Notes: generated by a model from the sequence alone, not told the origin. Shown: positions 252 to 45,256, counted from the stretch's first letter. The stretch: 64,000 nucleotides of DNA from a virus (IMGVR_UViG_2861084961_000001); one strand, 5' to 3'. Program-made: numbers and translations.

Positions 252-502
252 TGTTACAACCTTTGCGCGTTTAATTCTCTCTGGTAAGTGCTTACCGATA
301 TTACATCAAAGGTTAGGGTTGTAAAGCTATTATCATTTTTTTCGGCAGGCACTTGTAAGACCGAGCAAAGGTCCATGCATGGAGAAAAACTAGCCCCAAA
401 TAGGTAAGAAAATTAACTTGCATCTGATATGGATGTATTCAGTATTGATACAAATTTTAGTAGTATTCCTTACCATAGTATAAGTTAGAATGGATTGATT
501 GA

Positions 503-715
503 ATGAAAACCACTATTTCCAGCCTAATCGCTCTTGAGATCGGACACGTACAGAAATTAGCTGATGAGTGTGTAGCTGACATCCTCACCGATCTACCGAA
601 TGAGCAGATTCAGGTTGGTGTGAATGACACAACTGGCTTTATATTCGAACTTAACAACAAACGCTTCACACTTCTCAATACCGGCTCCGGGTCTTTAGCC
701 ATCAGAATCTGTTAA
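503..715 (+). CDS. hypothetical small protein (70 aa)
   Basis: ORF track only; no recognisable motif. Confidence 0.3.
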   Translation: MKTTISSLIALEIGHVQKLADECVADILTDLPNEQIQVGVNDTTGFIFELNNKRFTLLNTGSGSLAIRIC

Positions 716-813
716 CCCCTCTTCTCCCTGCGCGAATGGCTTAGTTCCCTGTTCGCGCAGTGCTACATTAAACACACTAGTAAATAATTTGTTTTCATAA
801 CAAAGGATTAGCC

Positions 814-2921
814 ATGTCTAAAAAACGTTCCATCAAAGAGGTTCAGGACTTCCGTGACAGTGTAAAACGAGTAGTCGCTCTCCTTTCAGGTAAAAACATC
901 CCTGTTGCAGAACGAGGGGACGACGCTTATGTACGCTATAACGATGATGGAGAGCCAATTCTCGTAAACATCCCATCAATCCCGGATAACGCAACACCGG
1001 CATTGATGAATGCTGTGCGCGGATTTCTCGATCATGAGGTTGCTCACATTTTGTTTACCGATATTCGTGTGTCCAACAAAATGAGAGAAAAAGGACGCGT
1101 TCCTTCCTGGTCACTATGGAATGCCTTAGAAGACGTGTTCATCGAGCGAAAAATGGGGCAGGTCTTTAACGGAACGAGACGTAATCTGATGGCAACTCAG
1201 CGCCTTATAATCGAAAAAGTCTTTAAACCAAAGGCTTCAGAGGCTATTGATTATTGTGGCAAAGATCAGCGCGCGCTTTTTCTAAACTTCTTTCTCTGTC
1301 CGGTTGTAAGAGCCTGGGATGGCCAAGCACCGTTCGTAGATTTCATGGATGAATACTGGCCTGTCATTGAGAAACCAATTTCATTATTAAAAGAACATGG
1401 TATCGATGTGGCCGTGCGTAACATGTCTTGCACCGAGGATTGTGTAAAGGTGGCTGCGACCATAGCTAAGATCCTCAAAGACACTGAAAGTGAAAGCAAA
1501 GGTAAGGAGTCAGCTCCGGGAAAAACTTCCGATCCTTCAGATACTGACCAAACGGATGCCTCTGGAGAAAACAATGAAGACAACGAAGATCATGAGACAC
1601 CCTCAGCGTTAGATAATCACAAATCTATCGAATCAGAATCACACAGTAAGCACAAACATGATAATAACGACAGTGATGATTCAGATAATTCTGAATCATC
1701 AGAAACAATATTCGATGATACAGAAAATGATAAAGAGGTATCAGATTCTGATGCTTCTGATAACGCGGCGTCAGAATCATTAACCGCTGACCACGAAAAA
1801 AGAAAAACGACAGAAGACGGCTCTTCAGATATTCCAACTCCGTCAAAAATGAGTCTGGAAGAGGCTTTAGAGGAGCTGGATAGCATAGAAGATGAAGTCG
1901 GAGGCATGACAGAAGATGCTCTATCCGAAACGATTAAAAGCGAGTTAACAGAAAGCTCGAAAGCGAATACAGGCCATACAATCGCTCATACGACTTCATC
2001 GGCTCGATTGATCAGGCAGAAGCCCATATCAAACGGCTTATTAAAACATTCTCCGATATTGATTTAGGAGGATATCCAATCAGCCGCTATCGCATCGTTC
2101 CTGAAGGCAACCAGCTCTTCGACAAATATATTGAAAAGCATCTTTCGTCAGGTGTTTCGTCGACGCTGGCAAAAGACCTGGAGCGAGCAATAGCAAGCAG
2201 AAACAGAGTTCAGTTTATACCGGGCCAGCGTCGGGGGCGCATTCATGGTTCTAGTATCTACAGATTAGCAATGAATGATGATCGCGTGTTTCGTAAAAAA
2301 GAAGAATCTAAAGCCGTTAACGCCTGTGTTCAACAAGTGATTGATTTATCAGGTTCAATGAGTGGTATAACGATACAATTGGCTCTTGCAAGTGCATATA
2401 CCATCGCCGATGCCCTTGATCGAATAAATGTTCCCAACATTATCACCGGCTTCACTACATTTGGTAGTCATATGGCGGCAGGAGAACTTAAGGCTGTCAA
2501 GTATGAGTTCTCTCGCTTTGAATCTTTAATGCTACCTATCATCAAAAATTGGAATGAAAAGGCAAATTCTCGCGAAGTTCGCTCACGTATGGGGTGCGTA
2601 GGCTACACATTCCCACTTCTTAATAACGTGGATGGTGAAAGCATAGCCAGCCTTGCATCGTTATTTTCTGGTCGCATGGAGGACAAGAAGATCATGCTTG
2701 TTCTAAGCGATGGCGCGCCGTGGGCTGTTGGGAGAGGTTTTGACGCTCATTTGCGTTCGGTTGCGAAGCAAATTGAAACGCAGACTGACATTGATTTGAT
2801 GGCAATTGGCATCATGACTGACGCACCGGAGAGATTTTACGCAAACCATGCCCTGGTAACGAGCGTTGATAGTCTTGGTTCATCTGTAGTTACTGAACTA
2901 TCTCGTATCATTTTGAAGTGA
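814..2921 (+). CDS. CobT-like protein: N-terminal domain, D/E/S-rich acidic linker, C-terminal vWA domain (DLSGSMSG MIDAS motif); split by a frameshift near 1935
   Basis: ORFs 814..2067 and 2271..2921; the frame of 2271 is open back to about 1938 and reads as natural protein, junction at an A-run. Confidence 0.5.
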
Positions 2922-2938
2922 TTAGAACAGCCTTAATG

Positions 2939-2959
2939 ATAAGTAATCACTTACGTTAT
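2939..2959. promoter_or_regulatory. motif A palindrome (ATAAGTAA-N4-TTACGTTAT)
   Basis: Intergenic, upstream of 3017 gene. Confidence 0.4.
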
Positions 2960-3016
2960 TTGATGGTATATTTATATAAGAAGTTGAAAGCTCATTAGAA
3001 AACAAAGGAAAAACGC

Positions 3017-3289
3017 ATGACTACTACTGCACTGCAAAATGAAAAAAATCCTTCTGATTACCTTGTTTGCAAGTGGTGCGGAAAATCATTTCACTATTTT
3101 AAGTCCCATGTAGCCAATGGTAATTGCGAGGGCATTCCTGAGTCAGTAAAAGATGCCGATCCTGACACCGTACTGAAAATGTACACAACGCAGTTTCCAG
3201 ATGAGCCAACGCTATCGAAAAAGGCACTTGATGCAATTCAAGCTAAACGTGCCGAGCAAAAAGCGAAATGGCCAAATCATCTGGCGTGA
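3017..3289 (+). CDS. hypothetical Cys/His-containing small protein (90 aa), possibly an N-terminal extension of the downstream ATPase
   Basis: ORF track; CxxC...H...C pattern; preceded by AGGAAAAACGCATG start context. Confidence 0.3.
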   Translation: MTTTALQNEKNPSDYLVCKWCGKSFHYFKSHVANGNCEGIPESVKDADPDTVLKMYTTQFPDEPTLSKKALDAIQAKRAEQKAKWPNHLA

Positions 3290-4251
3290 CCAATAGCCCA
3301 GGCTATACAGGCACAGTTGAGTACAAGACAGATCTGGTCGCAGCTCACGAACTGCTAAATGTAACGGTGAAAGAACTCGGAACAAAACGTGGGACGCCGC
3401 TCATGGTTAGCGTCAACGTCAATACGCCGTTTCCAGAGTTCGTTCCAGAAGTGAAGAAGGGATACGTATATGGCGACTTCGAACTGATCAAAGACATTTT
3501 CATGATGCTTGAACTTGGCATACCAGGCTATTTGTGGGGTCATGCAGGAACAGGCAAATCTTCATTGCCTACACAACTATGTGCTTTGCTCAATCGTCCG
3601 TTAATCCGTGCCCAACATACAGCATCAATGGAAGAGGCTCATGTTACGGGACAAATTCTGGCGCGTGATGGCTCTACGTATTTCGAGCCTGGCTTGCTTG
3701 CGCTCGCAATGAAGCATGGCTGGGTTTACCTCGCGGATGAATACGACTTTGCGTTTCCACAGATTCTTGGCGTGTATCAGCCAGTGCTGGAAGGTGAAGC
3801 GTTGGTCATCAAAGAGGCGACTCCAGAATGGCGTCGCATTACTCCGCATGAACGGTTTGCTTTCATTGGCACTGGCAACACGAACGGATCTGGTGATGAA
3901 ACCGGCTTGTACCAGGGTACAAACATCCAGAACGCCGCTAACTTTTCGCGTTTTGGCATCGTTTCGAATGTGAAATACATGAGCAAAGAGGCAGAGATCA
4001 ACATGTTGATAAATGCCGGCATCGTGGATGAATACGCTGAAAAGATGGTTAAGTTTGCCGGTATCGTTCGCGATGGATACGAAGAACACCTGATCAGTCA
4101 GCCGATTGGCCCTCGTGAACTTTTGTTGTCGGCCAAGATTGGAATGATGCGAGGCGACTTTGTGACAGGTATTGAGCGTTCTTTCATTAACAAACTCCCT
4201 TCAGCTTCTGCGCAAGCGGCACGTGAAGTTGTTCAAAAAATATTTGGTTAA
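3268..4251 (+). CDS. MoxR/CobS-like AAA+ ATPase
   Basis: Walker A GHAGTGKSS, Walker B-like VYLADEYD, about 327 aa, adjacent to vWA partner. Confidence 0.65.
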   Translation: MAKSSGVTNSPGYTGTVEYKTDLVAAHELLNVTVKELGTKRGTPLMVSVNVNTPFPEFVPEVKKGYVYGDFELIKDIFMMLELGIPGYLWGHAGTGKSSLPTQLCALLNRPLIRAQHTASMEEAHVTGQILARDGSTYFEPGLLALAMKHGWVYLADEYDFAFPQILGVYQPVLEGEALVIKEATPEWRRITPHERFAFIGTGNTNGSGDETGLYQGTNIQNAANFSRFGIVSNVKYMSKEAEINMLINAGIVDEYAEKMVKFAGIVRDGYEEHLISQPIGPRELLLSAKIGMMRGDFVTGIERSFINKLPSASAQAAREVVQKIFG

Positions 4252-4430
4252 TCGTGCGTAAAGGATGTTTCGGCTCTCTTATCGCTGCTTCTGAAACTGG
4301 CAAGGCTTGTCTGGTGTGTCCAGACAAGCCCGATTGTCACCAATCAGCAAAAGAAGTTGCGATTTCGATGTATGGGAAGTTCGTAGGCTTCCCCAATGAC
4401 AAAATCAAAAAACCAGAAAGGTAAAAACAC

Positions 4431-7400
4431 ATGAAGGCTCTGATGGTTCGAACTGACTTCTCTCTTGGGGAGTCGGCTCTAAAAGCAGAAAACGCGGTGA
4501 AGATTGCCAGAGAAGCTGGCTACACCGCTGTAATTTCGGCAGATAGCATGAATATTGCGAGTGTTATTCCACTACAACGTGCCGCTGGTGACGACATGGC
4601 GGTTATTTGTGGTGTGAAACTAAACATTGTTGATGATCCCACATACGAGCACCGGGCTAAACTTGCTAAAGAGTCTATGGGATGTATGGAATCATTAGAG
4701 CGTGGGCGGAACTACTCCTTTACCGCTCTAATTAAAAATGAGCAGGGATATCGAGACATCTGCGAACTAATGACGGCGGCCAACACACGAGAACAGTTCT
4801 ACTTTGTACCGCGTCTCTCGCTCGAACAGTTGGTTTCTACATATGCCAAAGGCAACATCATCCTGCTAACTTCCGACATCGGTAGCGTGTTCCAACGCAA
4901 CGATTTTGCAAAAATCATAAGCTCACTGATTACAGCGGGTGGAAAAGACAACTTCTATAGTGTGGTTTATCCGCACCCTACCCATTCTACGACCAGATTA
5001 ACGTCCGGGCGATGAAAGTCGCCAGCGCACTGAAAATAGAGCCAGTAGCGTTCTATCCCGCTTATTACGAATCGATCGACGATGCAGACATTAAAGACAT
5101 TGCGCACATGGTTACGAACAACATCAAAATCGACCAGCCGCATCGTCTGCGTATCCCCACCAGCGAGATAACGCCGTCAATTGTCGCCGCCATCTCCTTG
5201 AGGCGCTGAAAGCCTTCTCCGTTCGCATGGATGTGCCGGTAACAGCTGCAATGGCCTCAACAACGCAGGATACCATTATCGATGCCTGCACATGGCGCTG
5301 GCATGAATTGCCACCAGCACTGCCAAAGATGGCAGACGACGAGCCTGCAACTCTGATGAAACTGGCCGTTGCTGGGCTGCGTAAACGTCTTACCACAAAA
5401 GAGTTTGGCTACACACCACCGGCTTCTGAGAACAGGGTTTATGTTGAGCGACTTAAGTACGAAATGGATACGCTGACTCGCCTGGGATTCTGTGGTTACT
5501 TCCTGATGGTGCGCGATCTGATGAATCATAGTCGTGAAACTGGCATTCCCGTTGGGCCTGGTCGTGGTTCCTCTGCTGGCTCTTTGGTGGCATGGTGCAT
5601 AGGCATAACCAACGTCGACCCAATCCGTCACGGTCTTCTGTTTGAACGTTTCATCAACCCTGAGCGTCTCGACTTGCCGGATGCGGATTTGGACTTCAGC
5701 CAGGCACGTCGCCATGAAGTGATCGAGTATCTGAATGAACGCTACGGCGAAGATTACGTTGCGGGTATTCCGAACTTCACATATCTGGGCGCAGCCTCTG
5801 CACTACGTGACACCGCTCGTATTTATGGTGTGGAGTCCGCAGATATGGCGGTATCAAAGAACTGAAGAACGTCGAGGATGATAGCCTTCCATTGGAAGAA
5901 CTGCGCGAACAACTGGCAAGTCTCGACAAATACGCAACAAAATATCCTGATGCATTCAATGCAGCCTGCAAGTTACAAAGCCTTATGCGTGGCTTTGGTA
6001 GACATGCGGCAGGGATGATCGTAGCAGGTGTTCCTCTGACAGAACGTACACCGGTTGAACGACGTGGTGACGCGCGTTGTATCGCATTTGACAAGCGTTA
6101 CTGCGAGGCTATGGGCCTAATTAAGCTGGACGTGCTTGGCCTGGCAACTCTCGATTTGCTCGATAGTGCAAAACGCTACATAAAAGAGAACACAGGTGAA
6201 GATATCAATCTTGATGCCATTTCTCTTGAAGATCGCAAGGTGCTGGATGGTTTTGCTGCTGGGTACACTCAAGGTGTTTTCCAGCTTGAATCAGGCCCAA
6301 TGCGCAAGCTGCTTAAAGATTTAGGTGGTGGAATTGAGCCAATGAGCTTTAAAACGGTCGTCGCTACGACTGCGCTCTTCCGGCCGGGGCCAATTCAGTC
6401 AGGCATGTTGGATGACTATGTTTCTGTAGCCAAAGGCTTTATGAAGCCGGAATCATTACACCCCGTTCTTGATGAACTTACCGCAGAAACAAATGGCGTG
6501 ATTCTCTATCAGGAACAGACGATGAACGCGACTCGATTGCTTGCTGGCTTCACAATGGCTGAAGCTGACGGTGTTCGTAAAGCGATCGGCAAAAAGGACA
6601 TGGAAAAATGAAGAGCATGGGCGAGAAGTTCATCGTTCAGGCTCAAGCTGGCTGGATAGACGTTGAGCTGGAAGATGGCACTACACAGCGCATTCACCGT
6701 GCGGAACATTTTAAATGCGAAGACGGAACTCTGAAAACTGTCGAAGAGGCACTTGAGTACGGCGCAAAACTACCTATAAACGCAGTACGCGTTACAGCGT
6801 CACATCCAGGGCTATCAGAGATGAAAGCGAAGGAGATCTGGACCGCATTCGAAAAAAATGGAGCCTACCAGTTCAACAAATCACACTCTGTTGCTTACTC
6901 CTTAATCAGTTATCAATCTATGTGGTTGAAAACTCATTATCCCGCAGAGTTTTCGCTGCTGCTCTCACTATTCTTGGCGAAGATAAACACCAGGGGCTGG
7001 TTAAAGATGCGCTGACCTATGGTATTCGCGTATTGCCACCAGACGTTAACGTGTCATCTAACCGAATCGAGATCCGCACGCTTGAAGATGGCAGCCAGGT
7101 GCTGTATGCGCCCTTCTCTGCTGTGAAGGGGTGTTCTGAGAATGGCTGCCAGGCCATCATGAGAGCGCGAGAAAGGGTTGGCGGCAAATTCGAGTCACTG
7201 GCGCAATTCGAAGAAGCTGTCGAGAAACGTGCCTGTAATAGTCGAGTGCGCGAATCACTGCAAAAAGTAGGTGCGTTTGCGTCCATAGAGCCAGGTAGTC
7301 TGCCAGCAACTGATCCAGAGCGTCTCCGCGACCAAGCAGAATTGATGGGAAACCTTGTCATAGATGCAGTTAAAGCCTCACGTCCGTTTGAGATGAACCC

Positions 7401-7506
7401 CAAACGTTCGGCTGAGATTAACGTGCTCATGACACGGATGGCGGCTGAAATGGGCTTAGGTGATGAACTAATCCGCCCAGCATTGGTATTAAGCCGAAAA
7501 TCATGA
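4431..7506 (+). CDS. dnaE: DNA polymerase III alpha (DnaE-like), fragmented into six ORF pieces by frameshifts
   Basis: PHP domain at N-terminus; motifs GIPVGPGRGSSAGSLVAWCIGIT, GHAAGMIV, KLDVLGL, GVFQLES, ALFRPGP, ILYQEQ, YQFNKSHSVAYSLISYQSMWLKTHYPAEF in successive ORFs 4431..5015, 5012..5209, 5227..5865, 5892..6611, 6608..7015, 6922..7506. Confidence 0.75.
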
Positions 7507-7943
7507 TCATTCTGGACAATGCGAACGGCAATGATGCTCGAACCGGTTACTTCATGGAGAACGGATACGACGATTTTAAGGCCAAGCTATTGACGGCTGG
7601 AGATTTACGCATGGGCGATCTCTATGTCACAGGCGTTTGCAAAAAGGTGAAAGACAAAGAAAAGGACTACACCAAAGACGAGATCGGCCAGTTCACCGAC
7701 TTTATGCGTGAAGAGATCAATCTGGTGCGTCCGACCTATGTGCTGACGTGTGGCAGCCGGGCAACGGCATTGTTTAACAACAAAAACAAGCCATCCGATT
7801 TGGTCGGCAGGAAGGAGTATCTTCCAGACCTTGACGTTACTGTCTTTTACGGGTTTAACCCCAACATTCTTTACTTCAGACCTGAAGAGGGAGAACGACT
7901 AGAAGCGATATTAGCCGACGTAGCAGAAACTATTAAGACGTGA
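7503..7943 (+). CDS. uracil-DNA glycosylase-fold (family 4-like) protein, possibly fused to DnaE in the true sequence
   Basis: Weak pattern match to UDG family 4 blocks (YVTGVCKK, LVRPTYVLTCGSRATALF, FYGFNPNILYFRP); no Fe-S cysteines. Confidence 0.35.
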   Translation: MIILDNANGNDARTGYFMENGYDDFKAKLLTAGDLRMGDLYVTGVCKKVKDKEKDYTKDEIGQFTDFMREEINLVRPTYVLTCGSRATALFNNKNKPSDLVGRKEYLPDLDVTVFYGFNPNILYFRPEEGERLEAILADVAETIKT

Positions 7944-9708: not shown

Positions 9709-10653
9709 GTGAATTATCTCTTCGTAGATGGCAATAGCCTGGGTTATTACCACCAACAATCTGACAAATTGCACAACGGCGAAATGGAAGTACAGGCTGC
9801 TTTCGGCTTTGTTAAGAACGTCCGTCGTTATGCCTCCATCCTCCATGCCCGACCTATGATTCTTTGGGATGGATTTAGTGACAAGCGTCGCGACTTTTAC
9901 CCGGACTACAAAGCAAATCGCGACGACGATCCTGATATGAAAAAGATGAAGGAAGGCTTTGCTATCCAGAAGCCATACATCCTCAAAATGATGACCGCGC
10001 TTGGAGTTACCCAACTCATTGCAAAAGATGCAGAAGCGGATGATCTGGCCGGGCTGCTGGTATCCCGCATGGCACCGCAGCCAACCGTTGAACACATCTA
10101 TCTGTTAACAGGCGATAGCGACTGGCTTCAGTTAGTTCGTGAAAACGTAAGCTGGGTAAGCCTGCGTGAAGACGCCAAAAACAAGCAGGTTAATTTTGAG
10201 CAATTTGCGAAGCTGACAGGATTCGCCACGCCTCGCGCATTTTTGGAAGCAAAAGCATTACAAGGCGATAACTCGGACAACATTAGCGGTGTTGGTGGCA
10301 TTGGTGCTGGCGGTGCGAAAGAGCTGCTGCATGAATGGGGAAGTGTCGCAACGATGGTACGCGGCATCAACGACGGCTCAATCGTGGTTAATAAAGGGCG
10401 TCATAAGACCGCCTTCAACAAACTAGCGAAGAATGCCTTCAACGAGAAAACAGGCTGTCGAATGCTCGAAGCGTTCAAGAGAAACATCACGCTAATGAAC
10501 CTGATTGAGACGAAGTTTCCGCCTACCGAAATCGAAACAATCAAAGGCAATCGTGACGTGAAAGCATTCGAGCAACTGTGCTACGAGCTGAATTTCCGTT
10601 CGTTCCTTGAAGACCTTGAAGTGTTTGTTCTTCCATTCGAAAGGTATTGCTAA
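9709..10653 (+). CDS. 5-prime to 3-prime exonuclease / flap endonuclease (PIN plus H3TH)
   Basis: LFVDGNSLGYY, DGFSDKRRDFYPDYKANR, LLTGDSDWLQL, GDNSDNISGVGGIG; start moved to in-frame GTG 9709 after the terminator with GGAAGGA RBS (track ORF 9658..10653). Confidence 0.65.
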   Translation: MNYLFVDGNSLGYYHQQSDKLHNGEMEVQAAFGFVKNVRRYASILHARPMILWDGFSDKRRDFYPDYKANRDDDPDMKKMKEGFAIQKPYILKMMTALGVTQLIAKDAEADDLAGLLVSRMAPQPTVEHIYLLTGDSDWLQLVRENVSWVSLREDAKNKQVNFEQFAKLTGFATPRAFLEAKALQGDNSDNISGVGGIGAGGAKELLHEWGSVATMVRGINDGSIVVNKGRHKTAFNKLAKNAFNEKTGCRMLEAFKRNITLMNLIETKFPPTEIETIKGNRDVKAFEQLCYELNFRSFLEDLEVFVLPFERYC

Positions 10654-10919
10654 TGCTTAAATCGATTATTAATGGCGCTACAACCACCCCTGCCCAACTG
10701 GCAAAAGAGATTGTCTTTTATCACGGTGAGTACGCTGTCATCGCACTGCCGTCAATTCTAGGCACTGCCGGAATGAAAGCGACAGATCGCGAGTTTGGAT
10801 TAGTCAGCGAGCAGGTCGTAAAAATCCTCGCTCGTGTATCCAGACTCCTTAACCACGATGCGATTGTATTCGACGAATCCGCCGCTTTAAAACGAATCAA
10901 CGAAACAAAAGGAGCCTGA
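10647..10919 (+). CDS. hypothetical protein (90 aa)
   Basis: ORF track. Confidence 0.35.
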   Translation: MLMLKSIINGATTTPAQLAKEIVFYHGEYAVIALPSILGTAGMKATDREFGLVSEQVVKILARVSRLLNHDAIVFDESAALKRINETKGA

Positions 10920-13163: not shown

Positions 13164-13216
13164 TTCTCGTTATTATCACACACAAGAAAACAATTTGTTA
13201 AAAGGTTAAGTTAATT

Positions 13217-14041
13217 ATGCCCAACCACATTACAAACGAAATCCGAGTCATAGGTGGTACAAATAAACAACGCTTAGATTTCATACGTGCCATAACTAAC
13301 AAAAAAGGTCTAATTGACTTTAATACCATTTGCAGACGTCCGAAAAGTATAGAAATGGAAGAAAACAATCATATCAGGCGCATGGCCTCTGCAATGGCGG
13401 GCGAAACAGTTTACGACTACATGTTCGGTGAATTAAAGACTCCAGAACAGGTCGAATTAGCTATGCGTGAATCTGGAATGACACGCAAGGAAATTCGCAA
13501 AATCAAAGAGCAGGCTCTTATGCGGCTTGAGAATTATCGTCGCTATGGCTATTACTCATGGTTTGACTGGTCGCGAGCTAATTGGGGAACAAAATGGAAT
13601 GCCTACAACATCGAAATGCCCGTAAAACGTATCCCTACACGTATTAAGTACGGCCATAATTTCCGCCATACACACGTTCGAGCATATGCAAAACGAATCT
13701 ATAAAAAACGTCTTGCAAGACATGCCGCAACTGGTGGTGAGTTGGTGATTCGCTTTGAAACAGCCTGGTCTATGCCAAAACCAATTTATCAAGCGATGGC
13801 TAGAAAGTTCCCGCACCTTGAATTTGTAATACGTTATGCAGACGAAGACTTCGGCAATAACTGCGGATTCATTTTACTTCGCAACGGCAAATGGGAATAT
13901 GACTACATTGCACCGGCGAATAACGAACAATCGTCAGAAGAAAAAATCAAATGGCGCAAGTTCGCCTTTGAGTTATGTTGTCCTGGTATTACTCCACAAG
14001 AATACGGTCTAAATGAAGAATACGAATACGCCGGATATTAA
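13217..14041 (+). CDS. hypothetical protein (274 aa)
   Basis: ORF track; no assignable motif. Confidence 0.45.
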   Translation: MPNHITNEIRVIGGTNKQRLDFIRAITNKKGLIDFNTICRRPKSIEMEENNHIRRMASAMAGETVYDYMFGELKTPEQVELAMRESGMTRKEIRKIKEQALMRLENYRRYGYYSWFDWSRANWGTKWNAYNIEMPVKRIPTRIKYGHNFRHTHVRAYAKRIYKKRLARHAATGGELVIRFETAWSMPKPIYQAMARKFPHLEFVIRYADEDFGNNCGFILLRNGKWEYDYIAPANNEQSSEEKIKWRKFAFELCCPGITPQEYGLNEEYEYAGY

Positions 14042-14166
14042 AAAATTGTCATTTAGCTTTACGCATGAAGCATAGAGGTTAATAAGATGAAAAGAAAATT
14101 GAAGAACCAAAAACAACCCTTAATAAACATGGGGAAAAAATTCAAACACATCCAGCGTTCGGTCTT

Positions 14167-14826
14167 GTGAAAACAAGCCGTGTTAGCACAACTGGCATTC
14201 GCCTATTTGATTCAGAACTGGAACATAGAGACTATATTGAAATAGGCGTTTACGAGGCAGAGCTGTCCTTAGACAATGAACGAACCCGGCCACAAAGAAG
14301 TAGCAATAGACGGCCTTTAGTTGAAATTAGACTTAGCCAGGCACAATGGGCTGCTATGGTTAGCAGTTTTGGTGTGGGCGAAGGTGTGCCATGCACTATT
14401 TCATATAAAACCATTGGCGACTCAATTAGAGTTCATGATATTGCCGAGCAAAAAAGTATTCGGCAAAAATTCAACGATCAAATAAAGGCAGCTACGAATA
14501 GTGAGATTGATCGACTTAATCAGCAAGTTTCAGAGCTAGGTGAGCTTGTGAAAAAAGGAAGAGCTGGAAAACGTGACCTTGAAGAACTATATAGAAAACT
14601 TGCATCTGCTGTAGCTAACCTTCCTGAAAATCTGTGCTTTGCTACCGAATTAATGCAGGAGCAAATGGATGAAATTGTCTCATCTGGAAAGGCGGAGATT
14701 GAGGCGTATGTTGCAGGCACTGTTATGCGTAAAGGATTAGCAGCATTAGGTACAGAATCATGCATTAACGATGATCCTACAGTCTCTATCACCAAAATGG
14801 AAAGCGGTAAAGAATTACTGCCATAA
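14167..14826 (+). CDS. hypothetical protein; true start probably ATG 14087 with an A-run indel
   Basis: Frame is open from 14086; ATG 14087 sits one frame off next to an A-run. Confidence 0.4.
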   Translation: MKTSRVSTTGIRLFDSELEHRDYIEIGVYEAELSLDNERTRPQRSSNRRPLVEIRLSQAQWAAMVSSFGVGEGVPCTISYKTIGDSIRVHDIAEQKSIRQKFNDQIKAATNSEIDRLNQQVSELGELVKKGRAGKRDLEELYRKLASAVANLPENLCFATELMQEQMDEIVSSGKAEIEAYVAGTVMRKGLAALGTESCINDDPTVSITKMESGKELLP

Positions 14827-14893
14827 ATGTATCTGAGGTACTGACAATGCTTTTAATTCAACCTGGGTTCGGTTTAAAGATAAAAAAGGACAT

Positions 14894-15235
14894 ATGTTTG
14901 GTGAGAGAGATTCCAAACGAAAAATTCTGTCTATTCGATTGCCATTTATCACCATTCATTGGTTAAACAGAGAGTCAACCGATTATTGGTATAAATGTGC
15001 AAGAGCAGCATTTAACGACCCTGACTGGTTTATAGAAAACCACCACGCGGTTCGTCAGGCAAAAAGAAAGGCAAATACGACATATATGAAGGCATATCAG
15101 GATGCCTGGGAAGAACATCGTGGTCGATACCAAAAAAACATTGAAAAACTTGAATCTGAAAATATGGACCTAAGAAGAAAACTCGGTGAAGCACGGCGAG
15201 ATATTGAAGCATATAAACGTCTTGTATCGGAGTGA
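14894..15235 (+). CDS. hypothetical protein (113 aa)
   Basis: ORF track. Confidence 0.4.
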   Translation: MFGERDSKRKILSIRLPFITIHWLNRESTDYWYKCARAAFNDPDWFIENHHAVRQAKRKANTTYMKAYQDAWEEHRGRYQKNIEKLESENMDLRRKLGEARRDIEAYKRLVSE

Positions 15236-15397
15236 ATATGACTTTACATTGTTTTTCAAAGGGCATTGCTTTTCACTATACAGAAACAGAAATAATAATG
15301 GGGCATTCTACATATGTAGTAAATGTGGCAGAACAAAATATCTTCCAGATGTCAAATTTGAAGGTCCTTAAATGTTTGCATTAAATGGGCAATACAG

Positions 15398-15814
15398 ATG
15401 ATCGCAACAGACTTTTCTAAATTAAGTGATTTTGAAATTAACAGACGAGTATGTGAGGCTTTAGATATGGAGGAGTATTTCTTCATACCTGATGACGAAG
15501 CAGATTTCGATTCGGAGATCCCCACTGATGAAAGAGGTCCTGTTTGGCAAACGTCAAAAAGGGATATTAATGGCTTCCGTGCTTCAAACGGAAATTGCTT
15601 CAATCCTTGCAACAATCCGGCAGACGCAAAGCCTATTATCGTAGAGAATAGAATTGGCATCATTCCAGCGCCAGAAAATGGATTATGGAAGGCTGCGCAT
15701 AGAAAGGTTGGTAACGATAATACTCCATACCATATGACTCAAAATGTAAATCCACTCCGCGCCGCTATGATTGTCTTTCTGATGATGAAAGAAAGTGAGA
15801 GTTGTACCGATTAA
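15398..15814 (+). CDS. hypothetical protein (138 aa)
   Basis: ORF track. Confidence 0.4.
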   Translation: MIATDFSKLSDFEINRRVCEALDMEEYFFIPDDEADFDSEIPTDERGPVWQTSKRDINGFRASNGNCFNPCNNPADAKPIIVENRIGIIPAPENGLWKAAHRKVGNDNTPYHMTQNVNPLRAAMIVFLMMKESESCTD

Positions 15815-16112
15815 TGAATATATACGATTTTTTAAAAAACCTAACACATGTGTCAGAAAAGGGTATAGACCGTCAGTCATCGATTGCTGGTCGCTATCAG
15901 CAAATAATCTCAACAATGTATTCAAAATGCATTGGGAGTTTCTTTGTGAAGCGCGCGGCGTTCTCGACATGACAGTCAGAGAAGCAATTATCTGGATTCT
16001 TTGGTTTCCGGTAAGAACATTTATGACTCTGACGTACCCATTTACCTTCTGGATTTGGGGAACCGTCCTTTATTTCATATTAAAAGGAGAAGTAAAACAT
16101 GGCAGCAATTAA
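15795..16112 (+). CDS. hypothetical protein (105 aa)
   Basis: ORF track. Confidence 0.3.
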   Translation: MRVVPINEYIRFFKKPNTCVRKGYRPSVIDCWSLSANNLNNVFKMHWEFLCEARGVLDMTVREAIIWILWFPVRTFMTLTYPFTFWIWGTVLYFILKGEVKHGSN

Positions 16113-17069: not shown

Positions 17070-17405
17070 ATGAAGGCCATCCCATTCGCGCTGTTGTTCC
17101 TTTCTTCGATCGTTGTGGCCGACACCACTGTTTATCAGTGTGAAATGTCTGTAGCCGACGTTAAGAATGGCGCTCTTACCGACGTCATAAAAGCACCATA
17201 TGGAGCGATGGTCGTAGACAGCGGCGACCAGTTCTATGTTGTGCGTGACGATCGAGTATTGTCATCCCCATATCTCACAAACCGTAATGGCAAATTAACC
17301 GGCGTCGGAGAAGACCACTTCGTATACAACAAATACAAGGGCTTCTATGGCGTTCACGCTTCTCAGCAAAGCTACCTTTTCGATGACTGCAAGGAGGTTG
17401 GATAA
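17070..17405 (+). CDS. secreted protein with N-terminal signal peptide (111 aa)
   Basis: MKAIPFALLFLSSIVVA signal-like N-terminus. Confidence 0.45.
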   Translation: MKAIPFALLFLSSIVVADTTVYQCEMSVADVKNGALTDVIKAPYGAMVVDSGDQFYVVRDDRVLSSPYLTNRNGKLTGVGEDHFVYNKYKGFYGVHASQQSYLFDDCKEVG

Positions 17406-17617
17406 TGGCATTAACACTAGCAGGTCTGGAAATCGAGAAAACAAGCGGATACTGGCGTGCTAAGGGTTTCAAGCAGCCTGGCGTTCTTGAGCGTCTGGAG
17501 CGTGAAGATGGGTATATCGTCCACCAGCGGCGTGAATGGCGCATGTACGATCCAGAAACAGGAAAACTGACTACAAAAGCCGGAACACTTTGGGGTCTGT
17601 TAAAGAAAATACACTAA
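17405..17617 (+). CDS. hypothetical protein (70 aa)
   Basis: ORF track; followed by hairpin GACTGCGG-CTCGTT-CCGCAGTC at 17627-17648. Confidence 0.35.
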   Translation: MALTLAGLEIEKTSGYWRAKGFKQPGVLERLEREDGYIVHQRREWRMYDPETGKLTTKAGTLWGLLKKIH

Positions 17618-17663
17618 ATGCAAACTGACTGCGGCTCGTTCCGCAGTCATATTTCATAGTCGT

Positions 17664-18195
17664 CACCGCTGACAGCATACACAATCAACTGCCGCTGATA
17701 GCATATCGAGAGTCTATCTCACCGCTCACAGCATACTTTACTCGATTTTTACCGCTGACAGCATACTTAAGGCATTGCATGAATAATGTGTACCGGTATG
17801 GGTATAACCAGAACAAAATTACCGCTGGCAGCATACGAAGGTCTGACATATGCCATTAATTACCGCTGATAGCATATCCAAACAAAATTCCTCAATAAAA
17901 CACCGCTGACAGCATACGTTCTATCAGGGAGCAGCAGGCAATAAATGCCTTTCACTACAAGTAATCAGCGCAATGGCAATAGAATGTTAGTGAGCGCAAA
18001 CCTATATGGAATGCACTCTTCGAGGTTAGTAACCACTGGGGAGGTATAAAAGAGCATTGAGTGGTGATAGATGATTTACCGCTCACGGCATACGTTCATC
18101 TCACTATACCGCTGGTAGCATATCTTTAACCGTTCACAGCATACTTTTCAGAAAAATAGCCGCTGATAGCATACATTTCACCGCTGACAGCATAT
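17664..18195. repeat. iteron array: 12 direct copies of CCGCTGACAGCATAC-like 15-16 bp repeats downstream of repA (incA-like copy-control locus)
   Basis: Copies near 17666, 17692, 17722, 17752, 17822, 17863, 17903, 18079, 18109, 18130, 18160, 18181, same orientation. Confidence 0.8.
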
Positions 18196-19288
18196 CAAAG
18201 CAGTTTGAGACTATTGGAAAGGATCTCAATCATCTTGATATTTTCAGGCGTCAAATTCTGTGAAAGTTCGGTTATCTTATTGATAATGTTCTGTTTGGCA
18301 TCAATTTCCCCGGCTTTCTCATCTGGTTTTTTGGGTTCGATGTCTTCAGGTTTTGGCGGTGCGACTTTGAGTTTTGGATTGCGGCTGTGAATCTGGATAT
18401 AGATCGACCGCCCTCGCTTAATCTCGCTGTATTCGAGATAACCCAAATCTTGGAGAGCTTTTAAGCCGTTACGTATAGTCTGATTCTGCGAGCTGACATT
18501 CCTGCTACTCAAATTGAGTCGCGCACGCAATCGAGCAAGCGATACCGGCGCAGGCTTGGTTGGAAGACTTTCGATGAAGGTGTACAGAGCCTGTGCTGTT
18601 TCTTTGCGTGGTAGCTTATTGATAACCTTTAACTGTAAAAGAACCTTATGGTCAAAGCGATATAGTTCGGCCAGCTTCGGTTCTGCATAGAACACCACCG
18701 TATCTTTCTGCTCGTTGTAGTCCACGCTATTGATGAGGTGCACCATCAGAAGCGAGATCTTGTTAGAGCCGTCGACATTCTTTTCTTCATACGTTCTCTG
18801 GAAAGACAGAGTGGTACGCATAATCTTCAAAAGACTGTTTGTAAGCCGGTCGCGGAGTGTTTTGCGGATCTGTGACGATGGATAGCCACAAAACTTCGCA
18901 AATTTCGTGATGCTTAACTCGACACGACCGTTAGGTTCGCCGTATTCTGCCAGCGAACGCACAACGCCCACCCACGTTTTGAAATCATGATCCATGTCGA
19001 GACGAGGACCGGTTATCTTGATATCGGAATAGCCTTCAGAACGGGCTACTTCGAGCTGAACAAGCTCCTTTGAAGCATCGATCTCATTTGGCTTGTTACG
19101 CTTGCTGTATTTTGTCCCTTGAGCGTTGGCACGAACAACCCCAGCCGCATCAACGCAATTGGTTGGACTGTATTGTTGCTATTAGGGACAAGTTCCCCTG
19201 TGTACAATTCAAGGGAACCTTCTTCAAAGTTGTCGAGATTATCTTCTACTTCTTTGTTATTTTTACCTTTTTTATTTTTTGTGGACAT
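18195..19288 (-). CDS. repA: RepA replication initiator (P1 RepA / RepFIB family), one frameshift near 19125-19140
   Basis: Blocks match recalled P1 RepA: NSNNTVQPIALMRLGLFVP, KITGPRLDMDHDFKTWVGV, LPRKETAQALYTFIESLP, HSRNPKLK; ORFs 18195..18995 and 19046..19408 in different frames. Confidence 0.8.
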
Positions 19289-19309
19289 GTGGACACCTTT
19301 GTCATTCAA

Positions 19310-19410
19310 CCGCTGACAGCATACTTGATTTGCCGCTGGCAGCATACCAAAAACAGTTGGCAGCATACGGCGAACCGTTGACAGACTATCAATTACCGCT
19401 GGCAGCATAC
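19310..19410. repeat. five iterons of the same family spaced about 21 bp upstream of repA (origin)
   Basis: Copies near 19310, 19334, 19354, 19374 (degenerate), 19396. Confidence 0.8.
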
Positions 19411-19450
19411 ATGAACATGGCTTCAGACCAGTCGTGGCGCGGCTTACAGC

Positions 19451-39127: not shown

Positions 39128-39173
39128 GATAATTACACCAATAAGAAAACAAATTATTTAATGGTGTAATTAT
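39128..39173. promoter_or_regulatory. 12-bp perfect inverted repeat ATAATTACACCA / TGGTGTAATTAT enclosing a degenerate motif B; right arm overlaps the methyltransferase start codon
   Basis: Arms at about 39129-39140 and 39162-39173; ATG at 39172. Confidence 0.4.
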
Positions 39174-40857
39174 GAATACAGCCCTTTCCATCATCGACGA
39201 TGCCAGCTCAAACACGGCTATCGACTATCGTCAGGAAATGAATGTCATCCACGAAATCGTGGACGAGTGCGAGAAAGAGATCGCCTTCATGTATCAGGTA
39301 CACGACTTCGTTTATGGCGACGAACGCCACAACATGATTAATCGCCTGCTGAGACTAAACCATCGACCAGATGAAGATCGCTCGCGTTTAAATCGAGGTT
39401 GGTTGGATAAAGTTGATCTGGAATGGGTGAAACAGAATATTTGGGCCGAGTACTGGAGGAAGGTCACGGACATGACTAACGTTTTGCTGATCATGCCAGC
39501 TTCCCGTCGAGATGAGTGGCGCGAGCAGTTTATAGAGGGCAAACAGGAAGTCATCAAAACTGACAGAACCGGCTACCAGATGAAGGTTAAAGAGTTCGTT
39601 GGTGTACCGGAGTTCAAAGCAGAAACGGTCATACCCACGATGCTTAATTTGCTGAATGACAGGCACAAATATCTCTCTGAGCGCGTGTATGGCTTGTTTA
39701 AGGCGCTGAGTCCTGCGCACAAGACAAATAAGACAAACGGTTTCAGCGAGCGTCTGATAATCGCTGACTGCATTTCTGATTTCTGGCGGGACAGCGTTAG
39801 CGTGAACTATCGCAAAGAGGACTACATCGACGATCTGCGTGTCTTGCTTCATTTCTTCGCGCACAAAGAATTTATTACCATCAACCGCACTGCTGAGGTG
39901 CTATCAGCTGCGTATCGGGCAAACGACTGCCAGACCGGTGACTGGATGAACGTCGATGGAAATCTGATGCGCGTGAAGATGTTCAAGAACGGCAACGTTC
40001 ACTTTGAAATACATCCTGACGTGGCCTGGAAGTTGAATGAGGTGCTGGCTTACAGTATGCCTGCTGCAATCCCCGCGCCATGCCGAACTGCGCCAAAAAC
40101 ACGGGCACCAAAGCAGTTCGGTTTAATCCAGAAGACGATCTCCGTGCCGGTTCGCACTGCGCTTCGTGACGGGCGATTGAGCAAAGACAAAGGCGTATGG
40201 TACTTCTCTGATTCAGCTCTCCAGAAGTCGCAGGTGGAAGAGCTTGAGCGCACACTGAGCTTCATTGGCGGCGTGCAGGAGAAAAAGCACTGGCAGTTCC
40301 CGTATGACATCGGCCATACGCTAAATACGATTGTGGCTACCGGTTTAATACCGGATACAAAATCACACCAGTTCTACCCTACCCCACGCTTGATTGCTGA
40401 GTACGTTGCCAGAGCCACTGAATTGAAGCCTGGTGAGAAGCTGCTTGAGCCTCACGCCGGACGTGGGGATCTTCTGGCCTATATTAACGCCGATCTGGAA
40501 GATGTTACCTGCATAGAAATCGCACCTCTCTTCGCTGATATCCTGCGTGGAAAAGGGTATACGAACACGATTTGCTGCGACTTCATAAAGTGGTCTGAGG
40601 ACAACGCAGGTTATCAGTTCGACAAAATCGTTATGAACCCGCCGTACTCGCTTGGTCGTCATAGGGAGCACACGATGGCTGCGCTGGGGCATCTGAAAGT
40701 CGGCGGGCGTCTTGTAGCAGTATTGCCGGGCACTGCGCCAATACTGGACTGGATGACGATGGATAATTACGTTTATGCCAGAGGGAAGTCGTTTACCAAC
40801 GAGTTTGAAGACACAGGGATCACAGTCAGCGTATACGTTTTCAAACGCGTTAAATGA
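39172..40857 (+). CDS. DNA methyltransferase with about 400-aa N-terminal domain of unknown function and C-terminal NPPY-type catalytic domain
   Basis: LEPHAGRGDLL (SAM-binding-like) and DKIVMNPPYSLG; 561 aa intact. Confidence 0.6.
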   Translation: MNTALSIIDDASSNTAIDYRQEMNVIHEIVDECEKEIAFMYQVHDFVYGDERHNMINRLLRLNHRPDEDRSRLNRGWLDKVDLEWVKQNIWAEYWRKVTDMTNVLLIMPASRRDEWREQFIEGKQEVIKTDRTGYQMKVKEFVGVPEFKAETVIPTMLNLLNDRHKYLSERVYGLFKALSPAHKTNKTNGFSERLIIADCISDFWRDSVSVNYRKEDYIDDLRVLLHFFAHKEFITINRTAEVLSAAYRANDCQTGDWMNVDGNLMRVKMFKNGNVHFEIHPDVAWKLNEVLAYSMPAAIPAPCRTAPKTRAPKQFGLIQKTISVPVRTALRDGRLSKDKGVWYFSDSALQKSQVEELERTLSFIGGVQEKKHWQFPYDIGHTLNTIVATGLIPDTKSHQFYPTPRLIAEYVARATELKPGEKLLEPHAGRGDLLAYINADLEDVTCIEIAPLFADILRGKGYTNTICCDFIKWSEDNAGYQFDKIVMNPPYSLGRHREHTMAALGHLKVGGRLVAVLPGTAPILDWMTMDNYVYARGKSFTNEFEDTGITVSVYVFKRVK

Positions 40858-40876
40858 TAGGTAAATACTTACTTAA
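40857..40876. promoter_or_regulatory. motif A palindrome (ATAGGTAA-ATAC-TTACTTAA)
   Basis: Intergenic, upstream of 40919 gene. Confidence 0.4.
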
Positions 40877-40918
40877 TTTATGTAAGAATGTAGTAACTAA
40901 ACGATAAGAGAAAAACAC

Positions 40919-41623
40919 ATGAGCAACCTCCAGTTAGAGCATTTTAACGTCACAGGCCATTCCGATTTTCCTTTCAAGTTTACATTGAAAGGTTATGCGG
41001 AGGATGCGGTAGGCCAGATCATTATTGATAAAGGTATCGTTAAGTTTGAGGGGAATTTTGATGAATCCGCGAAAACATTCATAGACTTCGTTGCCAAACG
41101 TTGGAGCGAGCAATGGAAAGACCTGGAAAAGCGCGCCAATGAGTTTGATCGGTTCATGGATGCAATGGATACAGCAAAAGAGGCTCTGGCTGCCGGGACT
41201 CCGTTAGATCTGGAGTCACTTTTCAACGGCACAATGGCCTCTGCGATGTTCGCCACCATGTTCGCGGGTGAGTTCGTCCGCAGCGGTGCCAAAAACTACC
41301 TTGAGCTGGATTACAACGTCCCTGAAATTGGCGATTTCGTCGTTACCATCCAACGAAAAGAAGGTAAGACGCCAGGTGAACGCGTCGCAGAACTTGAGGC
41401 CGTTGTGGAGCAGCGTAACGGCGAGTGCGTTCGTTTGATCAACGAACGTAATGCTCTTCGTGAAGAAAAAATATGCACAGGTAGCAATACACGTAATGCA
41501 GCGGATATCTACTTCCAGTTAGTTGAGGAATGCCAGATTCCACCAGGTGGCTCTCTTGTCGATTACGTCAGACATTTAATGGCGGAAGTTAACTCCAGCC
41601 ATAAAGATGGTGAGGTGCGCTGA
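40919..41623 (+). CDS. hypothetical protein (234 aa)
   Basis: ORF track; GAGAAAAACACATG context. Confidence 0.45.
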   Translation: MSNLQLEHFNVTGHSDFPFKFTLKGYAEDAVGQIIIDKGIVKFEGNFDESAKTFIDFVAKRWSEQWKDLEKRANEFDRFMDAMDTAKEALAAGTPLDLESLFNGTMASAMFATMFAGEFVRSGAKNYLELDYNVPEIGDFVVTIQRKEGKTPGERVAELEAVVEQRNGECVRLINERNALREEKICTGSNTRNAADIYFQLVEECQIPPGGSLVDYVRHLMAEVNSSHKDGEVR

Positions 41624-42003
41624 TGTTTGGCATTGATGCACAGCGTATAGCAGCTTTTGCAAAAAGCCCTCTTGATAATCCCTTGTCTCGTAGTGAGCAA
41701 ATGGAGCTGGCAAGGCTTTTTCTTCACATTCAAAAACAGGCAGACGTTTTCAATAACATGCCTGATCAACCTATTCTGGATGGTCACATCCAGATGGTCA
41801 TTAACAGTCATGAGAAAGGCTGGGCTGCAATCGTCCCCTGCACAATTACATACAAGTTGGCGAAAGAGGTTCAAGAGTTTCGAAAAGCCAGTGTCGAATC
41901 GGAGTCTACCAAAGCCGCAATAAACACTCTTATTCGCATGGGGTTCACATGGGACGGTGGAGTTTACTGGCAAGCACCTCAACCCATTTTATCCGGCAAT
42001 TAG
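41623..42003 (+). CDS. hypothetical protein (126 aa)
   Basis: ORF track; start overlaps previous stop. Confidence 0.4.
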   Translation: MFGIDAQRIAAFAKSPLDNPLSRSEQMELARLFLHIQKQADVFNNMPDQPILDGHIQMVINSHEKGWAAIVPCTITYKLAKEVQEFRKASVESESTKAAINTLIRMGFTWDGGVYWQAPQPILSGN

Positions 42004-42062
42004 GCGCTACAAATCCTTCTGCATGAATAAATAAAGGCCATAACTTATGGCCTTAAATAAAT

Positions 42063-42113
42063 TGTTTTCTACCTTTTCTTATTTGTGAAAATAACCACAA
42101 CTAGAAAACAACG
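42063..42113. promoter_or_regulatory. motif B half-sites as inverted repeat TTGTTTTCT ... AGAAAACAA
   Basis: Upstream of the HD-hydrolase gene. Confidence 0.35.
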
Positions 42114-42122
42114 GAGTTAAGA

Positions 42123-42764: not shown

Positions 42765-42907
42765 AGGTAGAAAAAATAGATGTTCTTTCCTTTGTGCTGA
42801 CGGATCTGGAACGTCTCGATCCGGTTCGAGTGATGATTGAAAACTACGAACCTGGTAAGGGAAGAATCACCATCACCTGCTACGGAAAAGCGTGGACTGC
42901 GGCTTAG
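42761..42907 (+). CDS. small ORF (48 aa) coupled to HD gene by ATGA overlap
   Basis: Read from sequence; below track length cutoff. Confidence 0.25.
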   Translation: MKVEKIDVLSFVLTDLERLDPVRVMIENYEPGKGRITITCYGKAWTAA

Positions 42908-42913
42908 TTTGCT

Positions 42914-45096: not shown

Positions 45097-45256
45097 AGAT
45101 GTAACCCCAGGCGATGTGGTCATAACATCTAAAGGCAAACGATGTGCGGTTAAATCTTTCTGGATGAACGGTGAAAAAGTGACTCTGTTCGGTACGGATG
45201 GTTCCGAAACTGATTATGACTACGACGAATTGCTTGTTGTTGAGAGAGCTACCTAA
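45068..45256 (+). CDS. hypothetical small protein
   Basis: Track ORF 45035..45256, RBS-supported internal start. Confidence 0.3.
   Translation: MMRTVEVRAEDVTPGDVVITSKGKRCAVKSFWMNGEKVTLFGTDGSETDYDYDELLVVERAT

Follow-up and report, generated by a model that had tools for sequence, protein, structure and literature searches.

The cobaltochelatase of Brucella melitensis, CobSTN, is a structurally described relative of the gene pair considered here: in its CobST structure the 'shaft' of CobT enters the CobS ring, and the crystal structure of the N-terminal domain of CobT (CobT_N) was described by its authors as M48C-peptidase-like (bioRxiv 10.64898/2026.07.21.739949). Two explanations have been put forward for the related pairs of viruses. 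For archaeal and bacterial tailed viruses (Liu et al. 2021, PMC8651126) and for the phage ICP2 (Seed et al. 2011, PMC3037004), viral CobST has been proposed to hijack the CobN of the host. For T4-like jumbo phages, in which the combination of a zincin-vWA protein and a MoxR ATPase was noted earlier, a role in virion assembly has been proposed (Iyer et al. 2021, PMC7824862). Here we analyse such a pair in the viral sequence IMGVR_UViG_2861084961_000001 (64,000 nucleotides, hereafter the window, meaning this whole stretch of DNA), an SSU5/pHCM2-type phage-plasmid of Escherichia coli. To judge from their sequences, its CobT-like protein and CobS-like AAA+ ATPase almost certainly belong to the CobS/CobT family of MoxR-vWA pairs, and they very probably do not form a cobalt chelatase in this host. 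Compared with real CobT, the N-domain looks catalytic; the ATPase is fused to a zinc finger; and the pair recurs in the neighbourhood of DNA polymerases. Together with the evidence against a chelatase in this host, these points set a phage variant apart from the chelatase, with predictions that can be tested in E. coli. The reading that we favour, with about even confidence, is that of a DNA-associated AAA+/vWA/peptidase machine that remodels proteins for lytic replication, a phage-type paralogue of the cobaltochelatase motor.

All profile searches (Pfam, NCBIfam, PHROGs and PDB) place the two proteins in the CobT and CobS/MoxR-clade families and not in an unrelated one, in agreement with the original prediction, which had recognized an acidic-linker vWA protein and a MoxR-type ATPase between positions 814 and 4251 of the (+) strand. 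On the open reading frames (ORFs) of the window, Pfam finds CobT (PF06213, E 2.5e-28, aa 9-294 of ORF 814-2067), CobT_C/vWA (PF11775, E 3.4e-84, in the frame running on to 2921) and AAA_5 (PF07728, E 1.4e-15, in ORF 3268-4251). The CobT-like protein corresponds to PHROG 1576 (function unknown, E 1.5e-300) and the ATPase to PHROG 249 ('porphyrin biosynthesis', E 2e-106). The pair and its coordinates stand, these matches being far beyond chance. The anatomy first given for it was incomplete, as it missed two frameshifts and the true gene limits, the intact HExxH motif of the N-domain and the zinc finger of the ATPase. The region lists as four ORFs (814-2067, 2271-2921, 3017-3289 and 3268-4251), which are two genes only, one CobT-like and one CobS-like (Table 1).

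Three-frame translation reveals that the CobT-like frame is free of stops in the -1 frame from about position 1960 and runs into the vWA ORF through DLSGSMSG. In the alignment with Escherichia phage Cyrano, single-base deletions appear at 1960 (AAAA to AAA) and at 3258 (AAAAAA to AAAAA), and these are the only differences in length between the two genes and their Cyrano counterparts. With one A put back at each site, the genes encode proteins of 702 and 411 aa, the lengths annotated for this DNA in Cyrano, with about 98% and 99.8% identity to CYRAN_47 and CYRAN_48, respectively. In the same alignment dnaE is broken at least five times by an error of the same type, and relative to the near-identical plasmid NZ_CP031294 the window carries 61 one-base deletions versus 33 insertions over 51 kb, 29 of these 61 deletions falling in runs of at least 4. 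Examples of one-base homopolymer losses in the window are found at 1960, 3258, 4408, 4981, 5155, 5856, 6952 and 7482. The shortened A-runs occur in none of the approximately 90 related loci that were compared, and 29-32 related loci have identical flanks with one extra A. Because the same error recurs in dnaE and across the window, and because the shortened runs are private to this sequence, the gene breaks are taken to be homopolymer undercalls of the assembly, neither pseudogenization nor programmed frameshifting. The latter mechanism, considered by analogy with chlD (Antonov 2020), is rejected on these same grounds. As such losses fragment many genes, any ORF-based reading of the window needs frameshift repair.

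The N-terminal domain of the CobT-like protein is confidently modelled by AlphaFold, with a predicted local distance difference test score (pLDDT) of 90.6 and a predicted template modelling score (pTM) of 0.86 over aa 1-225, and its topology is that reported for the Brucella CobT_N crystal structure. A Foldseek comparison of this model with the PDB returned nothing significant, and a single-sequence phmmer search of the PDB with the N-domain gave chance matches only (e.g. HLA chains), for which reason a profile is needed. Relatives were collected by an exhaustive search of 1.84 billion cluster representatives (50%-identity clusters, E <= 0.001), which replaced an earlier word-indexed search that had yielded mostly fragments; 1122 were found. 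Every full-length protein among the best 150 (127/127) combines an N-domain HExxH with a DxSxS in its C-terminal part, and residues D73, H74, E75, H78, E106, D107 and E111 are invariant across 56 aligned relatives. HExxH is also found in the 'peptidase' beside cobS in cyanophage P-SSM4, in ICP2-type CobT and in the CobT of a Rhizobium phage, and PHROG 459 'peptidase' matches aa 72-128 of the window protein. Genuine CobT, in contrast, reads DSMALR / DAFALR at this position (S. meliloti, Cereibacter), the two Glu being retained. These motifs tilt the balance slightly towards an active metallopeptidase. Further along the protein, the acidic linker of the original prediction is real, and the vWA part matches Brucella CobT (9uka_G) with an E-value of 1.4e-16 as a single sequence and of 1.1e-63 with a family profile.

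The core of the ATPase (aa 141-411) matches Brucella CobS (PDB 9ujv) with an E-value of 1.8e-25. When the functional residues are defined from the CobSTN structure preprint (bioRxiv 10.64898/2026.07.21.739949), all of them align to identical residues in the window proteins (Table 1), and the helix-2 / pre-sensor-1 insert region aligns with CobS, which has both inserts. The ATPase has 1595 relatives at E <= 1e-10, mostly of 380-435 aa, and their N-terminal block follows the consensus I-x-C-x2-C-G-x3-H-x-I-x2-H-L-x3-H-P...Y-x3-F-P-x-A-P-x-L-S. Several comparisons connect this block to the Ros/MucR zinc finger: Pfam ROS_MUCR matches 10 of 38 ATPase homologues (best E 1.7e-5), a profile of the block searched against the PDB ranks Ros first (2jsp_A, E 1.3e-4; runner-up 0.13), and hhalign, run against a six-protein MucR profile, reports a probability of 94.7% (E 5.9e-8) over 43 columns. 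The second Cys is replaced by Asp in some relatives of the ATPase, and likewise in MucR proteins. The family consensus has all four zinc ligands; in the putative finger of the window protein the first three are C18, C21 and H31, and the fourth position is taken by N36/C37.

The location of the pair at the start of a replication gene block, as originally described, is confirmed. In the E. coli elements an integrase gene and a divergent helix-turn-helix repressor gene are followed by orf70, the cobT-like and cobS-like genes, a small ORF for a Cys-rich protein of 67 aa and dnaE, and then by genes for a UvsY-like protein, a gp32-like single-stranded DNA-binding protein (SSB), a 5'-3' exonuclease and RecA; a DnaB-like helicase, a primase and a ligase are encoded upstream of the pair. 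The pair is part of the first operon after the repressor and lies directly upstream of the gene for the phage's own DNA polymerase III (Pol III) alpha subunit. When considering the 11 contexts sampled (phage lineages, and relatives found as metagenome or bacterial-genome contigs), the pair is inside a replication/recombination cluster in 10. The order helicase-primase-ligase-[cobT-cobS-small orfs]-dnaE-SSB-exonuclease-RecA is shared by SSU5-like phages, Pseudomonas Nickievirus, Rhizobium RHEph10-like phages and a Stenotrophomonas phage. The dnaE-type block is also found in an uncultured phage contig and in Ectothiorhodospira and Photobacterium assembly contigs carrying chromosomal-type genes, the identity of the ATPases being 35-57% where measured (Pseudomonas phage ZY21, the Rhizobium phage and the contig relatives). 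In Cobavirinae, two small genes separate the pair from the DNA polymerase and the primase/helicase; in an ICP2-type phage, helicase and PolA are encoded downstream of it; in the T4-like cyanophages P-SSM4 and S-PM2 the order is gp47-gp46-[peptidase-cobS]-gp45-gp44-gp62; and a Salmonella island has a CobT_N-like gene near ssb and bet. Xanthomonas phage JGB6 was not retained among the contexts, since its record (OQ436456) is fragmented by frameshifts and its match is weak. In this record dnaE and the genes for a helicase, a primase and an SbcCD-like protein each appear as several coding sequences, which suggests uncorrected indel errors like those of the window.

Strong purifying selection acts on both genes. 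In the comparison of Cyrano with SSU5, the proportions of non-synonymous (pN) and synonymous (pS) differences are 0.057 versus 0.75 in the AAA+ core and 0.15-0.17 versus 0.82-0.85 in both domains of the CobT-like protein; the acidic linker evolves fast (pN 0.44). The transcriptome of the Cyrano lysogen lists the repressor and hicAB as expressed and does not list orf70, cobT, cobS or dnaE (PMC9928086). This pattern agrees with an operon kept off during plasmid maintenance and turned on for the lytic cycle.

How the favoured protein-remodelling machine would work can be sketched by analogy with Brucella CobSTN. The ATPase would form a hexameric ring into which the pre-vWA segment of the CobT-like protein would insert as a shaft; the N-domain would dock on the ATPase lid, and a client would be held between the MIDAS (metal ion-dependent adhesion site) face and the N-domain, in the place occupied by CobN in the chelatase. 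After derepression, the zinc finger would bring the complex to DNA, and the MIDAS site would grip an acidic residue of a DNA-associated client. ATP hydrolysis would then drive the remodelling of this client, with cleavage where HExxH is intact, so that a component needed for lytic replication of the phage DNA would be cleared or matured. Whether the function of the pair serves DNA replication or a DNA-bound target at all is, in our estimate, evenly balanced. A bolder form of this proposal, which we consider rather unlikely, would see in the pair a widespread and unrecognized accessory of phage replisomes, an AAA+/vWA/zincin machine, tethered to DNA, by which a protein obstacle on the DNA (a repressor, a nucleoid silencer, or a host replisome part that is stalled or in competition) would be removed or cleaved before or at the start of phage DNA synthesis. 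It would accommodate the conservation of the pair beside three polymerase families (DnaE, PolA, and gp43 with gp45/44/62) in phages of hosts ranging from enterobacteria to cyanobacteria, and it would mean that the 'cobS auxiliary metabolic gene' of marine cyanophages is misassigned.

Several points weigh against the favoured machine. The pair of Roseobacter phage CRP-810 is near endonuclease V and integrase genes, with no replication gene or polymerase nearby. The synteny may have come down to the DnaE phages with one large replication module of common origin, and in small genomes it may simply be placement among early genes. Pseudomonas phage ZY21 lacks HExxH (DSEISK), yet it keeps both the pair and the synteny, so that proteolysis is not indispensable to the core function. 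Lastly, the finger has modest backing from structure and from the sequence of the window protein itself, in which the only finger match is zf-C2H2_6 (E 0.07) with the fourth His replaced, and Ros-type fingers could mediate contacts with proteins rather than with DNA.

That the two proteins are true cobaltochelatase subunits, a viral CobST that uses the CobN of the host to raise cobalamin for B12-dependent enzymes, is highly improbable in this element, clear as the homology to CobS and CobT is, down to the MIDAS site and the shaft region. CobN does occur in some hosts of related phages (Rhizobium, cyanobacteria; see also Liu et al.). However, the NCBIfam equivalog scores of the window proteins are 7-11 times under the cut-offs (84.8 versus 558.55 bits for CobS, TIGR01650; 68.3 versus 759.05 bits for CobT, TIGR01651). 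As the original prediction implied, the rest of a cobalamin pathway is missing: CobN and other B12 genes are absent among the 122 features of NZ_CP031294, no CobN or B12 gene is added by the ORFs of the window segments that differ from this plasmid, and the ribonucleotide reductase of the plasmid belongs to class Ia, which is B12-independent. As is well established, E. coli has neither CobN nor a corrin pathway, although its chromosomes were not searched here. De novo synthesis of B12 in E. coli required about 30 heterologous genes, including cobN, cobS and cobT (PMC6249242). Since CobN is missing from both the element and E. coli, the borrowing of a host CobN by viral CobST (PMC8651126, PMC3037004) is inapplicable here. 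In two bacteria with the real enzyme, cobS precedes cobT and CobS has 331-345 aa, whereas in the window the cobT-like gene comes first and the ATPase has 411 aa. This reversed order, the intact protease motif and the added zinc finger are all foreign to the chelatase, and strong purifying selection acts on the pair in enterobacterial elements, whose hosts use a CobN-independent anaerobic route or none. Almost no credence can be given to the notion that the phage-plasmid is defective and the window genes are pseudogenes in decay. Frameshifts do interrupt the pair and dnaE in the window, but every frameshift checked in the operon is one of the private one-base homopolymer losses described above; the two genes have no nonsense mutations or larger deletions, and the amino-acid identity to intact relatives is 98-99.8%.

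The remaining alternatives concern the purpose of an active machine. A virion-assembly chaperone combined with a maturation protease would have a demonstrated counterpart in p618/p892, the MoxR/vWA pair of Acidianus two-tailed virus, and the domain architecture, a peptidase-vWA protein with a MoxR ATPase, is equal to that for which Iyer et al. proposed such a role; MoxR/vWA pairs are also assembly chaperones in general. It is nonetheless an improbable explanation here, given that a replication/recombination cluster holds the pair in all but one of the contexts sampled, that the structural module is more than 20 kb away, that the pair shares the first operon after the repressor with dnaE and that the ATPase bears a finger of a DNA-binding type. 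A minority chance, though a real one, must be left to a device for host takeover or counter-defence unrelated to replication, in which an early machine would capture a host protein (for instance a nucleoid silencer, a transcription factor or a protein of defence) and then degrade it or render it inactive. This proposal overlaps with the favoured one and differs from it solely in the purpose of the client. Its appeal lies in the early, repressor-controlled expression that the position of the operon implies, in the combination of an intact zincin motif with a protein-capturing MIDAS domain, and in the Ros/MucR-type finger, a fold of xenogeneic silencers that could target the AT-rich DNA where such host proteins sit. 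PADLOC, however, finds no match to known defence or anti-defence families, and the placement by polymerase, clamp or helicase genes is conserved in phages of unrelated hosts, whose nucleoid and defence proteins are unrelated as well. The only PADLOC hit, DrmE (E 0.0015), was judged to be noise.

Table 1. Coordinates of the features in the window and correspondence of functional residues with the Brucella proteins.
Feature	Window position	Strand	Brucella residues	Residues of the window protein	Remarks
orf70 (70 aa)	503..715	+			first gene of the operon, past the divergent repressor gene; PHROG 2627, function unknown
CobT-like gene	814..2921	+			702 aa after 1-nt repair; zincin-like N-domain, acidic linker and vWA
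CobT_N domain	814..1488	+		aa 1-225	predicted one helix, three-stranded sheet and helical bundle
HEVAH	1033..1047	+		H74-E75-x-x-H78	zincin metal-binding/catalytic motif
NALEDVFIE	1120..1146	+		E106, D107, E111	invariant; candidate third zinc ligands, gluzincin 'glutamate helix'
Acidic low-complexity linker	1489..1968	+		aa 226-385	160 aa, net charge -37; fast-evolving
Shortened A-run splitting the CobT-like gene	1960..1962	+			one base less than in all relatives
Putative 'shaft' segment	2196..2306	+		aa 462-498	from position and alignment to Brucella CobT only
vWA domain	2307..2921	+			complete MIDAS; Pfam CobT_C, E 3.4e-84
MIDAS			D422, S424, S426, N518, D546	D511, S513, S515, N605, D633	
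CobS-like gene	3017..4251	+			MoxR-clade AAA+ ATPase; 411 aa after 1-nt repair at about 3258
Putative Ros/MucR-type zinc-finger domain	3062..3220	+		C18, C21, H31, C37	family consensus His at C37; conserved Y56, P61, S67
Shortened A-run splitting the CobS-like gene	3253..3257	+			one base less than in all relatives
AAA+ core and lid	3436..4251	+		aa 141-411	from alignment to CobS
Walker A			G71-S78	G175-S182	
Walker B			D141-E142	D241-E242	
Sensor-1			N186	N288	
Arg finger			R210	R312	
Sensor-2			R271	R367	
Small Cys-rich ORF	4254..4424	+			67 aa once the A-run at about 4408 is repaired; PHROG 6337 (unknown); between the ATPase gene and dnaE
dnaE	4431..7943	+			Pol III alpha with C-terminal UDG-family domain; operon partner downstream; at least 6 ORFs in the window

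Some further observations concern the operon and its surroundings. A conserved small ORF occupies the position of orf70 in the relatives. The divergent intergenic region between the repressor gene and orf70 (259-500) contains the palindrome GGTAAG-tg-CTTACC (283-296) and further half sites, GGTAAG (404-409) and CTTACC (469-474), which are candidate operator sites. Promoter, terminator and tRNA scans of the region were uninformative. The repaired 67-aa ORF (4254-4455) overlaps the start of dnaE and encodes four Cys and one His (C5, C19, C22, C28, H29); its product may be a small zinc-binding partner. The Pol III alpha subunit of this phage group has a C-terminal domain of the uracil-DNA-glycosylase (UDG) family (PF03167), which appears in the window as a separate 146-aa ORF (7503-7943) because of a frameshift. 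Between the cobS-like gene and dnaE, the Rhizobium phage and two contig relatives have a gene resembling sigma-70 region 2 (locus coordinates 10209-10844, 10182-10856 and 10254-10877), and the enterobacterial elements have only small ORFs. In the relative borne by Ectothiorhodospira, the RecA gene contains an intein (17375-19188; Pfam Intein_splicing between two RecA_N matches).

The region is 98.3% identical to Cyrano and 75% to SSU5, and the closest complete plasmid, NZ_CP031294, is 99.2% identical across the queried stretch 500-4500. This stretch matches 469 plasmid records, mostly from Escherichia, Enterobacter, Yersinia, Salmonella and Citrobacter, 446 of which are predicted to be non-mobilizable. 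Matches are also found in 244 of 5426 complete E. coli genomes (4.5%), on a plasmid every time. A search for related loci with the single CobS-like protein retrieved SSU5-group loci only. NZ_CP031294 has genes for a Pol III alpha of its own, a 3'-5' exonuclease and a homologue of the theta subunit; its annotation includes no sliding clamp or clamp loader, and the element thus presumably relies on the clamp system of the host. Window segments 13210-16080, 17617-19422 and 39619-47763 have no counterpart in this plasmid and are probably variable cargo. They include genes for a Rep3-type initiator (18195-18995, - strand), a NinX-like protein, a DUF4942 protein (39172-40857) and an HD_4 domain protein (42123-42764), as well as several further ORFs with no Pfam match.

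In RefSeq the two products are named 'cobaltochelatase CobT-related protein' and 'AAA family ATPase', and in the SSU5 record 'putative porphyrin biosynthetic protein' is used. The Cyrano record (OV696614, 6315-9754) labels the pair 'dimethylbenzimidazole phosphoribosyltransferase' and 'cobalamin synthetase'. These latter names confuse the CobT and CobS of Salmonella with the unrelated chelatase CobT and CobS of the Pseudomonas type, and Pfam detects no domain fitting them in either protein. The pair is common, it is already annotated, and earlier papers have treated it as a puzzle, so that as such it is an ordinary feature. No paper was found on the SSU5/pHCM2 pair, on a fusion of a MucR finger to an AAA+ ATPase, or on phage CobS/CobT together with Pol III. 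Virome studies routinely tally cobS and cobT among the 'auxiliary metabolic genes' for cobalamin, and the T4-like cyanophages have cobS among their core genes. Should the pair of the E. coli phage-plasmids act in DNA replication or protein processing instead, ecological interpretations and automatic annotations would need revision in many cases. With their frequent occurrence in clinical Enterobacteriaceae and their ability to infect E. coli K-12, SSU5-type elements make it practicable to look for the client of a phage MoxR/vWA/peptidase machine.

Compared with the known systems, the window pair shares with Brucella CobSTN (PDB 9ujv, 9uka) a homologous AAA+ core in which all residues of the nucleotide site are aligned and, in CobT, a vWA domain with an identical MIDAS pattern, a pre-vWA 'shaft' segment, an acidic disordered linker and an N-domain predicted to have the same fold topology. 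It differs from CobS and CobT in having no CobN partner in element or host and scores far below the equivalog cut-offs, in an N-domain that retains the HExxH...E lost in CobT, in an ATPase with an N-terminal extension of about 100 aa bearing a zinc finger, whereas CobS (about 330 aa) has no N-terminal domain, and in a T to S gene order inside a phage replication operon, the reverse of the S to T order of bacterial chelatase genes. The pairs of 'cobS' with 'peptidase' or cobT in T4-like cyanophages, ICP2-like phages, Cobavirinae and haloviruses likewise combine a MoxR-clade ATPase with an HExxH zincin-vWA protein and are likewise placed among replication genes. Identity to these pairs is, however, only 25-31%, and their neighbouring polymerases belong to other families. 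Unlike the window ATPase, those of cyanophages, ICP2 and Cobavirinae have no Ros/MucR finger, and the CobS-like proteins of Cobavirinae have long N-terminal extensions in which Pfam recognizes no domain. The hypotheses published for these phage pairs (B12 supply, virion assembly) also differ from the protein-remodelling function favoured here.

More distantly, the window pair resembles CbbQ/CbbO, NorQ/NorD, RavA/ViaA, ATV p618/p892 and the Mg-chelatase pair BchI/BchD, in which a hexameric AAA_5-type ATPase is associated with a vWA-MIDAS adaptor that grips a client; weak sequence matches link the ATPase to CbbQ and NorQ and the vWA protein to NorD. The adaptors of these pairs have no active peptidase domain, which the CobT-like protein may have, their ATPases have no DNA-binding-type finger, and their clients are metabolic enzymes or virion parts. 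As for the finger itself, about 45 N-terminal residues of the ATPase align to the core C-x2-C/D-x9-H-x4-H...Y of the Ros/MucR family (A. tumefaciens Ros, PDB 2jsp; PF05443), with which the Cys to Asp variant at ligand 2 is held in common. In contrast to Ros/MucR, the finger is fused to an AAA+ ATPase and not to the MucR oligomerization domain, and in the E. coli lineage another residue, possibly C37, stands in for the His of the fourth ligand. The second half of the DNA-binding domain is also shortened relative to Ros, with DNA binding itself putative.

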